Part shown: positions 47,961 through 52,011 of the stretch, one piece after another | How the letters are laid out: every line of letters begins with the position of its first letter | Numbering within the stretch: the stretch's first letter is position 1 | Notes under the pieces: model-generated | Database searches by the model: none | What the model saw: only the letters and a program-made list of their open reading frames with translations | What the model was told of the DNA's origin: nothing | Translations under genes and position numbers: made by a program | Source: an uncultured candidate division Zixibacteria bacterium | GTDB taxonomy: Bacteria; Zixibacteria; MSB-5A5; RBG-16-43-9 | Direction of reading: 5' to 3' | Length of the DNA stretch: 64,000 nt | NCBI GenBank assembly: GCA_963713865.1 | Contig: OY970208.1 | Coordinates: 704,001 to 768,000 of the forward strand

Positions 47961-48698
47961 TTATTTTTTAGGAGTGGTAGCTGGTAAAGTGTTAAATATT
48001 AATGGTATCGAAATCCGGGTCTTCTCTTTCCCCTCCAATTCTAAAGTCAAAGAGCTCTTAAGCCCTTCCTTGGGTAAATCTTTCACCGGTTTTACCTTTA
48101 ACTCAACCGACTTCCCCGGTTTAAGCTTCTTACCTAACTTAACTTTGAAATACTCCTCGGGATAATCGATTAAAGAAACCTTGTACTCCTCTACATCCGA
48201 GTTTTTCAAAGAAAGCTTTTTCTTCTGGGGTTTCCCCTGAATTACAGTGAAATCCAGCGAGGAAGAGGTTAATTGAGCCTTGAAAGTTGAATCCGGCACT
48301 GGAACAACCTGACCATTTAATTTTATATTCTGCACTTGAGAACTGGTATCTTTATAGGAGACATTAGCATATTTGGCAATCTTACCCGAAGCTTTGGTAG
48401 AAGTATAACTTACTATAAGCTCTGTGCTATCACCGATAGCAAGCTCCGTCTTTTTTAAAGGAGCCTTGGTGCACCCTCAGCCAACGCTAACGTTCATACC
48501 CCGCAGAGTATCAGTGCCCACATTCTTTAACCAGAAGCTGTGGCTTACCACAGAATTCTGAGGAATACGACCCCAATCCCAGTTCATCTCTGAAATCTCC
48601 AATTTGGGGGTTCCGGCTTCTAAATTCGTGAAAGCCAGACTTGAAAAGAGAATCGACAATAGAATCGGGAACAAAAACCTGTTCTTTTTCATTTTCAC
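47961..48698 (-). CDS. DUF1573-like exported protein with in-frame UGA (candidate selenoprotein, UGC motif), 245 aa with readthrough
   Basis: ORFs 48477-48698 and 47961-48335 are in one frame separated only by TGA 48479-48477: ...GMNVSVG-UGA-GCTKAPLKKTELAIGDSTELIVSY...; signal peptide present. Confidence 0.82.
48424..48476 (-). promoter_or_regulatory. Candidate SECIS/recoding element
   Basis: Immediately 3' of UGA; stems GGCTCC/GGAGCT and GCTATC/GATAGC; 49/53 identical to 49275-49327. Confidence 0.6.
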
Positions 48699-48817
48699 CT
48701 CCTCCGTTCAGTTAAAAATCTTTATCTATATTTACGAAAAATTCGATTAAAATCTTTAGTTAAATCTGTTTGGTTTTAGATGCTTGTCTTCCCTAGTTTC
48801 CCTTAATCGGGAACGAA

Positions 48818-49531
48818 CTATTTTCCAGTAGGTTTCTCCTTCTTGACTGGAATGGTAATCCTGAATTCCTTTCCTCCTTTAACTTGTAAAGTAATCGACT
48901 TCTTAAGTGTGTCAGGTGGAAGTTTCTTGAGCGGTTTGACTTTGAGCTCTATGACCTTGCCGGGTTTAAGAATATCCCGTTTTAGTTTCACCTCGAAAAG
49001 CTCTTTGGGATAGTCTATTATCTTAAGTTTATATTCTTCTTTACCAGAATTATTGAACTCGACTTTCCTTTCCTTTGTAGCTCCTCCCTTCTCCTCTATG
49101 AACTCTATGGTATAAGGAGAATATCTCAGCAAAAGTAAAGTGTCGGGCTTGGACTTCACATCTGCGGTTATCTCCAATCTATTATACCCGGAGGTAGTAT
49201 CATTAGAGCTCACCTCCACATATTTAGTTTCCTTGGTAGTAGCAGCCCTATTAGTGTAACTAATCTCCAATTCAGTGCTATCGCCGATAGCCAGCTCCGT
49301 CTTTTTCAATGGAGCCTTGGTGCACCCTCAAGGTGTTTTTACGCTGATCCCTTTAAGAATATCAGTCCCGACATTCTTAATCCAGAAGATATGCGTAACT
49401 GTGGAATTTTGTGGTACCCTTCCAAAATCCCAGATCCGCTCGGAAAATTCTATCTTTGGTGTTCCAGCCTGAGAAAAAGAGCAGGATATAAAAACCAGAG
49501 TTATGGCTAAAAATAAACCTTTTAATCTCAC
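48818..49531 (-). CDS. DUF1573-like exported protein with in-frame UGA (candidate selenoprotein, UGC motif), 237 aa with readthrough
   Basis: ORFs 49328-49531 and 48818-49309 are in one frame separated by TGA 49330-49328: ...GISVKTP-UGA-GCTKAPLKKTELAIGDSTELEISY...; signal peptide; RBS GGAGGT before GTG. Confidence 0.82.
49275..49327 (-). promoter_or_regulatory. Candidate SECIS/recoding element
   Basis: Same two-hairpin sequence directly 3' of the UGA. Confidence 0.6.
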
Positions 49532-49690: not shown

Positions 49691-49876
49691 TTAATGATTA
49701 ATCCAGAATATATAAAATCCTGCGAAAATTATCAGTAATCCGCTCACCTTTTTGGCAATATTCGAGAAATTTGTTATCCCCTTAGAGTGGGCAAAACTCT
49801 CCACAAAACCAGTTGATACACCGGCTAAAACTATTGACGCATAATGTCCTATGGCGTGGACAAAAAGAAGCGAAAA
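49691..49876 (-). pseudogene. Orphan, diverged 3' fragment of ccdA
   Basis: Translates [60 protein letters not shown]; 42/60 aa identical to the end of CDS 50885-51574. Confidence 0.9.
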
Positions 49877-49929
49877 CCTGAAAAAACACTTGACAAATCG
49901 TCAGGAGATAGACTTATTTATGAGGAGAA

Positions 49930-50137
49930 AAAATCCGTGAGAAAAGCTTTCTTGACTGAGCGGGCCACTTGTCATACGCACCGATATTCTTTCGCCACTC
50001 ATTTGCTGGAAAGTGGTTATGACATTCGAACGGTACAGGAGCTTCTCGGCCACAACGGTGTGAGAACCACAATGATCTATACCCATGTGCTGAACCGTGG
50101 CTGCCGAGGGGTAAAGAGCCCGGTGGACAGCCTATGA
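49930..50137 (+). pseudogene. intI: Integron integrase C-terminal fragment
   Basis: [51 protein letters not shown] matches the IntI C-terminus; the N-terminal part is absent. Confidence 0.88.
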
Positions 50138-50823: not shown

Positions 50824-50890
50824 GCCCAACCAATCATTCCACCGGACCTGCGCGAAAGACCGCGCAGACCGGTGAATTCAAATGTTATAA
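50824..50890 (+). mobile_element. Integron attC site
   Basis: GCCCAAC...GTTATAA; arms ATTCCACCGG/CCGGTGAAT with an unpaired base; central GCGCG hairpin. Confidence 0.88.
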
Positions 50891-51574
50891 GTTAATGAAC
50901 AAAATGTACAAACCCGCTAAAAAAATCAGAACTCCACTGATTTTCTTAGTGAGGCTGGAGAAGTTACTTACCCCTTTAGACTTGGCGTAGCTTTCCACAA
51001 ATCCCGTTGATACCCCAGCTAAAACTATCAAAGCACAATGTCCTATGGCATATACAAAAAGAAGTGAAATTCCATAGACTATCCTGGCTTTTGTAGCGAC
51101 GAAAGCTAAGATAACTGCTAAAACCGGTGTGGCACAGGGAGAAGAGACTACCCCGAAAAGAAGTCCTAAGAGAAACGCACCCAAGACCCCTTTATGTTTA
51201 GTTTTCAATTCCACAGTTTTGGGAAACGGAATTTTAATCAGGCCTAAAAGATATAAGCCCATAATCAAAGCCACCCCCGCGGCTAAATAAAACCATAACT
51301 TCCCTACATCTCCGAAAAGCTTTCCCAAAAGGGAAGCCATAGCACCTAAAATGGTAAAAGTGATAGATAACCCTAAGGCGAAAACCAAAGAATAAAGCAG
51401 GGCTTTCTTTTTATCCCCCTGAGAATAACCTCCCACAAATCCAATCACCAGAGGGATAATTGCCAGAACACAAGGGCTGGAAGCTGATAAGATACCACCT
51501 AAAAAGATTAAGATATAAGCTAAGCCCGGAGTGTTATTTATTACACTGGATATGTTCCCCAAAATGGATTCCAC
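50885..51574 (-). CDS. ccdA: CcdA/DsbD-beta family membrane electron transporter
   Basis: SSPCVL and SSPCATP cysteine motifs; about six TM segments. Confidence 0.9.
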   Translation of the reverse strand: MESILGNISSVINNTPGLAYILIFLGGILSASSPCVLAIIPLVIGFVGGYSQGDKKKALLYSLVFALGLSITFTILGAMASLLGKLFGDVGKLWFYLAAGVALIMGLYLLGLIKIPFPKTVELKTKHKGVLGAFLLGLLFGVVSSPCATPVLAVILAFVATKARIVYGISLLFVYAIGHCALIVLAGVSTGFVESYAKSKGVSNFSSLTKKISGVLIFLAGLYILFINL

Positions 51575-52011
51575 TATTTGACTCCGATCTCCAAAAACTT
51601 TTGTGTGATGGAAGTTTTATCCATAAACCCCTCATGTCTGTAAACTTCTTTTCCAGAAACATCGAAAAATATCTGTGTAGGGATTAACCTTATTTTATAA
51701 AACCTGGCTGGCTCCGGGTCATATCTGATATCTATAATTTTGATTATTGCTCTCCCTTTATACTCATCTTTTAATTCTTCCAATATAGGCAGCATCATCT
51801 TACAGGCTTTACAGGTGCCCCTGCCCAAATCGATTAAGATTGGTAAATTTTTGGCTATTACGCCTGAACTATCATTAGTCGTAGAAATTTTCTCAGAAGA
51901 AGAAGTCTCCCCCTCCTTAAAAGATGCTTTATCTCTTCCTTGAAAGATAATCCAGCCTGCGATTATAAAAACGACTGCCAAGCTAATCACCAATTTCAGT
52001 AATTTATTCAT
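51574..52011 (-). CDS. Membrane-anchored thioredoxin-family protein
   Basis: N-terminal TM; CKAC active site; IPTQ cis-Pro loop. Confidence 0.88.
   Translation of the reverse strand: MNKLLKLVISLAVVFIIAGWIIFQGRDKASFKEGETSSSEKISTTNDSSGVIAKNLPILIDLGRGTCKACKMMLPILEELKDEYKGRAIIKIIDIRYDPEPARFYKIRLIPTQIFFDVSGKEVYRHEGFMDKTSITQKFLEIGVK

Follow-up and report, generated by a model that had tools for sequence, protein, structure and literature searches.

The window analysed here is a 64,000-nucleotide stretch of DNA from an uncultured candidate division Zixibacteria bacterium (contig OY970208.1). On its minus strand lie two tandem genes that are predicted to encode selenoproteins of the DUF1573 family, each with an in-frame UGA codon followed directly by 53 nucleotides (nt) of conserved sequence. 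This sequence forms two hairpins that are selected at the RNA level, and together they probably make up a two-part bacterial selenocysteine insertion sequence (SECIS).

Gene A (47961-48698) encodes an exported protein of 245 amino acids (aa), in which selenocysteine (Sec) would be residue 74, in the motif UGCT; its paralogue, gene B (48818-49531), encodes 237 aa with Sec as residue 68. The Sec codons lie at 48477-48479 and 49328-49330, respectively. The Pfam profile PF07610 (cut-off 26.1) matches gene A with an E-value of 5.3e-18 (65.3 bits) and gene B with one of 1.9e-22 (79.6 bits), and the DUF1573 domain extends across the TGA in both. The first cysteine (Cys) of the DUF1573 CGCT motif has become TGA in each gene, giving UGCT, and standard open reading frame (ORF) calling cuts each gene in two at this codon. 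Both products have a second Ig-like domain and a signal peptide, which is lipoprotein-like in gene B. The ribosome-binding sites are GGAGGAGG for gene A and AGGAGG for gene B. From the UGA codon onward, the protein common to both genes is UGCTKAPLKKTELAIGDSTEL.

Selenoproteins of this kind have been known since 2007. A DUF1573 family with a UGC motif appears in the tables of PMC9312934 and PMC13188914; it corresponds to OS_HP2 and can be traced to the study of an Olavius symbiont by Zhang and Gladyshev (PMC1976440). Genes A and B share with OS_HP2 the DUF1573 domain and a Sec in a U-G-C motif that is aligned to the Cys of homologues, and they differ from it by their second Ig-like domain. The OS_HP2 model NF041425 scores their products below its cut-off of 100 (P0001, 47.8 bits; P0002, 56.9 bits), which suggests a branch apart from OS_HP2. 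By these scores the two genes are related to OS_HP2 and fall outside that subfamily model. What is new here is the SECIS architecture.

The machinery for reading UGA as Sec is complete in this 2.72-Mb genome, where tRNA-Sec, selA, selB and selD stand together in one cluster. The products of selA (559 bits), selB (398.5 bits, cut-off 242) and selD all exceed curated cut-offs, and selD itself has one in-frame TGA.

Of 41 related genomes, 40 contain homologues of genes A and B; many of these homologues have a single TGA, and others have Cys and no TGA. At the Sec column, the loci of these relatives have TGA at 49 sites and Cys at 23. Species-representative genomes were scanned with a pattern that fixes TGA, Gly-Cys-Thr and Ala-Pro-x-x-Lys and leaves the 3' strands of the stems free. 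This pattern occurs in at least 120 stretches, with 124 matches in the listed loci; 112 were kept as unique DUF1573 sites, and 12 were dropped for want of an upstream DUF1573 motif, for in-frame stops or N, or as duplicates. Relatives and scan matches listed together make at least 140 unique Sec sites, and all counts of 140, 124 and 122 sequences given below refer to the matches listed. The TGA column and an open frame on both sides are kept throughout the at least 140 sites, and 23 homologues have Cys.

The 53 nt after the UGA (48424-48476 in gene A, 49275-49327 in gene B) agree at 49 of 53 positions, as an earlier reading of the letters alone (the sequence-only reading) had counted. The flanks are far less alike, with 32 of 53 positions identical in the 53 nt upstream and 26 of 53 in the next 53 nt downstream. 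Over the remainder of the two genes, 350 of 652 aligned positions are identical (53.7%), and the best other non-overlapping 53-nt window reaches 39 of 53. The binomial chance of at least 49 of 53 is 8.6e-10 per window, for 691 windows.

Two stems can be drawn in this sequence. Stem 1 pairs GGCUCC with GGAGCU (+12..+17 with +30..+35, counted from the UGA) around a loop of 12 nt, not 11 as in the sequence-only reading, which had otherwise described both stems as found here. The resulting hairpin 1 lies at 48442-48465 in gene A and 49293-49316 in gene B (+12..+35 in each), all on the minus strand. Stem 2 pairs GCUAUC with GAUAGC (+37..+42 with +46..+51) around a GGY loop. Hairpin 2 therefore spans +37..+51, at 48426-48440 in gene A (GCUAUC-GGU-GAUAGC) and 49277-49291 in gene B (GCUAUC-GGC-GAUAGC). 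The four differences between the genes (+18, +21, +36 and +45) are all synonymous, so that both genes give the same protein, and they sit in the two hairpin loops and in the linker of 1 nt, just where they had been placed before.

A further pairing that had been proposed, GUGC at +3..+6 with GCAC at +50..+53, is possible in the window and competes with stem 2. It did not hold up across the sequences: 80.7% of its alignment cells are paired, against a shuffled mean of 80.6%, and 203 of 500 shuffles score as high. It was rejected.

Both hairpins are under RNA-level selection in TGA-bearing genes

The codons after the UGA in the Sec set read GGN UGC ACN AAR GCU CCN NUN NNN AAR NNG GAG CUK GCU RYC GGU GAY AGC. 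Information at third codon positions was compared between the 49 Sec and the 23 Cys sites. It differs sharply at codon 5 (GCU; 1.38 bits in Sec vs 0.15 in Cys), codon 10 (xxG; 1.43 vs 0.03), codon 11 (GAG; 1.45 vs 0.20), codon 13 (GCU; 1.57 vs 0.07), codon 15 (GGU; 1.01 vs 0.25) and codon 17 (AGC; 1.51 vs 0.65). Third positions of the Sec set thus carry 1.0-1.6 bits in the stems and the GGU loop and 0.13-0.47 bits in loops and linkers; Cys sites have 0.03-0.65 bits at the stem and GGU positions. Because the loop and linker positions are nearly free, the Sec set is divergent enough for the comparison to be made.

Folding energies were compared with those of synonymous randomisations, in which every codon is redrawn from the codon usage of the same genes. 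A main set of 124 Sec sites, picked by a regular expression on hairpin 2, was used. Its hairpin 1 region folds at -9.9 kcal/mol against -3.2 when randomised (z -2.9), with 86% of sites in the best 5%, and its hairpin 2 region at -7.5 against -2.6 kcal/mol (z -3.1), with 94% in the best 5%. Codons 1-19 as a whole fold at a mean of -19.7 kcal/mol. The 23 Cys homologues fold much as their randomised versions do, at -2.9 against -3.1 kcal/mol in the hairpin 1 region and -1.4 against -1.2 in the hairpin 2 region.

Pairing can also be counted in all 140 listed Sec sites, which were not selected for structure. The hairpin 2 register has 91.2% of cells paired, with 103 of 140 sites fully paired, and hairpin 1 in the window's register has 80.6%. 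The corresponding values in the 23 Cys sites are 47.1% and 39.1%, and no site is fully paired. Among 122 unique 60-mers, which are related sequences, 91.1% of cells are paired, a level reached by 0 of 500 shuffles; controls slid along the sequence give 29-62%.

Hairpin 2 is nearly invariant in these 122 sequences, with the form GCU-RYC-GGU-GAY-AGC and 97.3% of cells paired; 68 of them have exactly GCUGUC-GGU-GACAGC. Its loop is GGU in 100 sequences, GGC in 14, GGA in 5 and GGG in 3, so the apex is C-GGN-G in all 122. One of its pairs covaries between G-C and A-U (pair 43-51: GC in 110, AU in 12). Hairpin 1 is likewise found in 122 of 122 sequences, and its sequence varies, with 54 distinct principal stems in 7 registers and loops of 3-12 nt. 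Its ends are steadier: the 5' base is +11 or +12 in 96 of 122 and the 3' base +35 or +36 in 89, which leaves a linker of 0-1 nt to hairpin 2 in most. The 5' strand is mostly set by Ala-Pro codons. Codons 10-12 supply the 3' strand; Cys homologues do not conserve the residues that these codons encode. Pair 18-35 shows compensating changes, being UA in 75 sequences, GU in 14, AU in 6, GC in 4 and UG in 2.

RNAalifold, run on the codon-fixed alignment, recovers the outer 4 base pairs (bp) of hairpin 2. Pairs such as G4-C20 in its output join invariant, protein-determined bases with no covariation, and they were not taken as structure.

The sequence-only reading had named three observations that would speak against a recoding signal: equal conservation in Cys homologues, no covariation, and a recent gene-conversion tract. 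Both nucleotide conservation and pairing are missing from the 23 Cys homologues, and compensating pairs are present. Conservation of the protein after Cys or Sec, or recent conversion between tandem paralogues, could in principle produce such identity with no RNA signal at all, given that Cys homologues, too, keep the motif C.CT.APL.K..LA and that genes A and B are adjacent paralogues. This account is very improbable. Synonymous sites are frozen solely in the stems and the GGU loop, and solely in TGA genes, and the element is present in 124 of the 140 listed unique sites, in many genomes. Moreover, gene B shares the synonymous states TTG, CTG and ACT, and gene A the states TTA, CTT and ACA, with their respective orthologues in a second genome, and conversion would have erased these paralogue-specific states; a recent tract as the source of the identity is thereby refuted.

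A second alternative is that the TGAs are true stops in split or decaying genes, and that the hairpins serve mRNA stability or form a DNA-level palindrome. It would agree with the way standard ORF calling splits each gene, and Rfam, which was not checked for a bacterial SECIS family, has 0 matches in the window at its gathering thresholds. Even so, it is hardly credible in view of a DUF1573 domain that runs across the TGA, a TGA with open frame in at least 140 unique sites, Cys in homologues and a complete Sec machinery. G.U pairs are frequent (for example, pair 15-38 in 77 of 122 sequences), so the structure fits the sense mRNA strand only, and no U-run follows hairpin 2 in the window. The two hairpins are real and selected at the RNA level, and this holds only in genes that bear the TGA, which supports the recoding signal first suggested.

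Comparison with known SECIS elements and with other selenoprotein genes

As given in PMC13188914, the bSECISearch model has an apical loop of 3-9 nt on a stem of 4-16 bp, the apical motif N1-G-[G/U]-N-N2, a distance of 16-37 nt from UGA to loop and a minimum free energy of -7.5 kcal/mol or lower. Other papers call the bacterial SECIS 'a simple stem-loop' (PMC4561486) and place its conserved G about 20 nt downstream, with differences absorbed by a hinge in SelB (PMC4605307). Reviews also state that some bacterial SECIS or selenoprotein genes do not fit the model (PMC9312934, PMC13188914). Passages in the OS_HP2 papers describe single stem-loops. Searches on two-hairpin or bipartite bacterial SECIS and on Zixibacteria with selenocysteine did not find this layout in the literature covered, which lay outside subscription papers and figures.

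The DUF1573 element shares its place with the bSECISearch consensus, which is of the E. coli fdhF type: both are situated within coding sequence, immediately behind an in-frame UGA. In hairpin 2, a stem of 6 bp carries a small loop of 3 nt (5 nt with the closing C-G open), the C-GGU-G apex has the G followed by G or U that SelB would read, and the mean energy of the region is -7.5 kcal/mol. The element is present in Sec genes only, in a genome with selA, selB, selC and selD. It departs from the consensus in two respects: the loop of hairpin 2 comes 42 nt after the UGA (53 in a subgroup) instead of 16-37, and a second conserved hairpin stands between the UGA and the putative binding hairpin. 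A spacing of 16-37 nt is obtained only if hairpin 1 is itself the SECIS or if the distance is counted with hairpin 1 folded. The earlier statement that the shape is unlike that of E. coli fdhF accordingly stands for the 42-nt distance and the intervening hairpin 1, and falls for hairpin 2, which fits the apical motif.

The same genome offers further selenoprotein genes for comparison. An ORF screen with Pfam found selD, two HdrA-like genes and a thioredoxin-like gene with the motif UPYC. Comparison with these, as the sequence-only reading had proposed, shows that hairpin 2 resembles the hdrA SECIS and that selD shares the layout.

In relatives, all 30 real hdrA sites have the hairpin GGAUGYC-GGUC-GRCAUCC at +21..+38; one extra match to the regular expression was spurious. 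The stem covaries between GCC..CGG and GUC..CGA by way of a synonymous Arg codon. The resemblance to hairpin 2 is close: the apices UGUC-GGUC-GACA and UGUC-GGU-GACA differ by one loop base, the stem has 6-7 bp, and covariation uses synonymous codons. Unlike the DUF1573 element, the hdrA SECIS is a single hairpin with a 4-nt loop instead of a 3-nt one, and the 20-21 nt before it are unstructured sequence with no intervening hairpin.

In selD of 13 unique relatives, 12 nt lead to a small hairpin that covaries, and a linker of 1 nt joins it to a second covarying hairpin with a G-GUK-C apex. This is the layout of the DUF1573 element, in the same clade. Hairpin 1 of selD is only 13 nt long, so the loop (+34) is still inside the 16-37 nt window. 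In addition, an outer stem (GGCAA/UUGCC) encloses both hairpins of selD and has no supported counterpart in the DUF1573 element; in most of the 13 sequences (L208-L229) the result is a three-way junction, separated from the UGA by only 4 nt. The thioredoxin-like gene, known from one sequence only, has 11 nt between the UGA and its hairpin.

Across the genome (G000), 7 of 1,804 open-frame TGAs are followed by a hairpin of at least 6 bp with a GGUC, GGU, GUU or GGC loop, where 2.0 would be expected. The seven include selD, the two hdrA-like genes and genes A and B, five in all. At G000:C1:2553759 (-), an open-frame TGA in the context SAURCF has a 7-bp hairpin with a GGU loop at +17, which may be due to chance. 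Two other TGAs stand beside a Cys, one in a cytidylate-kinase-like ORF (CPAWU, G000:C1:16405, +) and one in a rhodanese/beta-helix/dockerin protein (CPGGUGATSCG, G000:C1:782723, +). Neither TGA has a GGU-type hairpin downstream, and both genes were left out of the comparison; each may be a broken gene or a further selenoprotein that uses another SECIS. Four long ORFs with a dockerin-like end, at G000:C1:511861 (+), 622506 (-), 1218911 (-) and 1276153 (+), are followed by a TGA. The in-frame sequence after it is alike (AKRNPAAGG.EKQFG) in the first three and not in the fourth, which could reflect a shared downstream element or readthrough.

Variants of the element occur among the DUF1573 genes as well. 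At 7 Sec-DUF1573 sites, which form a subgroup, the protein motif is still LAPGDS, as in the Cys type, and the hairpin is AUUCCAC-GGUC-GUGGAAU, with its loop at +54..+57; a longer hairpin 1 fills the gap before this far hairpin 2. One class-level relative has two sites with a single hairpin, GGGAU-AGUU-AUCCC, and the two copies differ by compensatory changes. Sec-DUF1573 paralogues often stand in tandem, two or three to an array, with three copies each at L056 and L091 and two each at L151 and L167. Every such copy has its own UGA, a hairpin 2 of the conserved pattern and a differing hairpin 1; one copy at L091 is a GCC variant.

Possible roles of the two hairpins

The 53 nt are probably a two-part bacterial SECIS, in which hairpin 2 binds SelB and hairpin 1 serves as a folding spacer. 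From sequence comparison we infer which hairpin binds SelB and that hairpin 1 is a spacer, as well as SelB binding and Sec insertion themselves. The SelB-binding part would be hairpin 2 (+37..+51), with its 6-bp stem and C-GGU-G apex. Hairpin 1 (about +12..+36), variable in sequence and always there, would act as the spacer, its folding taking about 24 nt out of the path to hairpin 2. Some 12 unpaired nt would then separate hairpin 2 from the UGA and place this hairpin at the mRNA entrance of the ribosome when the UGA is in the A site, the position of a canonical SECIS.

An 11-nt spacing rule holds for the E. coli minimal element. With hairpin 1 folded, about 11-12 unpaired nt and a linker of 0-1 nt precede hairpin 2 in the DUF1573 element, and about 12-18 nt in the 7-site subgroup. 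The size of hairpin 1 scales with the gap in three layouts, which supports the spacer reading.

The alternative that hairpin 1 is itself the SelB-binding SECIS would leave hairpin 2 an accessory role: it might serve as a stabiliser or second contact, or hold the ribosome as a roadblock. The position of hairpin 1 suits the binding role, since 96 of 122 sequences have its 5' base at +11 or +12, much like the E. coli minimal element, and its apical loop falls within the 16-37 nt window. Its sequence does not. No nucleotide of the loop is kept more strictly than the protein motif demands, and an apical G, present in 77 of 122 sequences, has no fixed position and occurs at a rate close to that expected by chance in loops rich in purines. 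A hairpin with 54 stems, 7 registers and loops of 3-12 nt is an unlikely target for a factor that reads sequence, and the 12-nt loop of the window's own hairpin 1 is larger than the 3-9 nt of the bSECISearch model. The invariant G-G/U apex, common to hdrA and selD, sits in hairpin 2. Such a division of roles is therefore rather doubtful.

Both hairpins may instead belong to the SECIS while hairpin 1 does something other than adapt distance: it may make the ribosome pause at the UGA, guard hairpin 2 against mispairing with the purine-rich coding sequence, or stack with it into a composite platform for SelB. The linker of mostly 0-1 nt, with the 3' base of hairpin 1 at +35 or +36 in 89 of 122 sequences, is in favour of this. 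So is hdrA, which by inference works with about 20 unstructured nt, so that compaction may be unneeded. Against it, the intervening hairpin grows with the gap: it has 13 nt in selD, about 24 in the main DUF1573 form and 28-36 in the subgroup, leaving about 11-18 unpaired nt in all three layouts, as a spacer predicts. These other roles are compatible with spacing, and an element without it seems unlikely, slightly less so than one in which hairpin 1 binds SelB. The 20-nt unstructured spacer of hdrA nevertheless means that the tolerance is not tight, and pausing, protection from misfolding or a composite platform are also possible.

Several points weigh against the two-part reading with hairpin 1 as spacer, or temper the statistics behind it. 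The loop of hairpin 2 begins at +43, 42 nt after the UGA and beyond the 16-37 nt consensus, and the roughly 20 unstructured nt in hdrA suggest that hairpin 1 may not be needed for compaction. Five of the six pairs of hairpin 2 have no two-sided change, and three of these never vary. Its sole covarying pair, with 12 A-U sequences, occurs in the window's own family alone and could stem from a single evolutionary event, and the GCC variant brings a C.A mismatch at pair 44-50 in 20 of 122 sequences. RNAalifold does not recover hairpin 1 from the codon-fixed alignment, and single sequences, with z of -0.5 to -1.4 against dinucleotide shuffles, show no clear extra stability. The statistics on hairpin 2 in the 124-site set are partly circular, because a regular expression on hairpin 2 defined that set, and the shuffle counts overstate significance because the sequences are related. 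Finally, the 23 Cys homologues are more distant paralogues and not sister lineages, and part of the conservation is that of the protein, since C.CT.APL.K..LA is partly kept in them too.

Genomic neighbours and significance

Just upstream of gene B, a 97-aa ORF on the plus strand (49844-50137) aligns with the phage integrase family (PF00589, E 4.2e-15) at profile positions 115-169 of 172, the C-terminal end alone, and is a truncated remnant of a tyrosine recombinase. Some 1.35 kb upstream of gene B, and like it on the minus strand, are genes for a CcdA/DsbD-type membrane protein and a thioredoxin (50885-52011). A tblastn search of 149 loci with Sec-DUF1573 genes, the flanks of which are short, found the CcdA-like protein in 12 and the thioredoxin in 11. 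Such neighbours hint at a role of the UGC motif in thiol-redox chemistry of the envelope.

The DUF1573 and selD elements may be examples of a modular bacterial SECIS, for which the case is about evenly balanced. It would consist of a spacer hairpin of free sequence about 12 nt after the UGA and a SelB-binding hairpin 36-46 nt downstream, with the folded and not the linear distance under constraint, and it would recur in no fewer than two unrelated selenoprotein genes, DUF1573 and selD, of Zixibacteria-type genomes.

Bacterial selenoprotein genes are still mostly sought by way of one hairpin in a fixed window after the UGA. If the modular layout is true, SECIS finders that assume one hairpin and a distance of 16-37 nt would miss or mis-assign such elements. 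The DUF1573 element offers a well-sampled case, with at least 140 natural variants, in which the one-hairpin model fails, and it suggests a rule in terms of effective rather than linear distance. Its natural spacer variants can be used to study how mRNA-bound SelB reaches the ribosomal A site. For annotation, genes A and B and more than 100 homologues should be read through as single selenoproteins.

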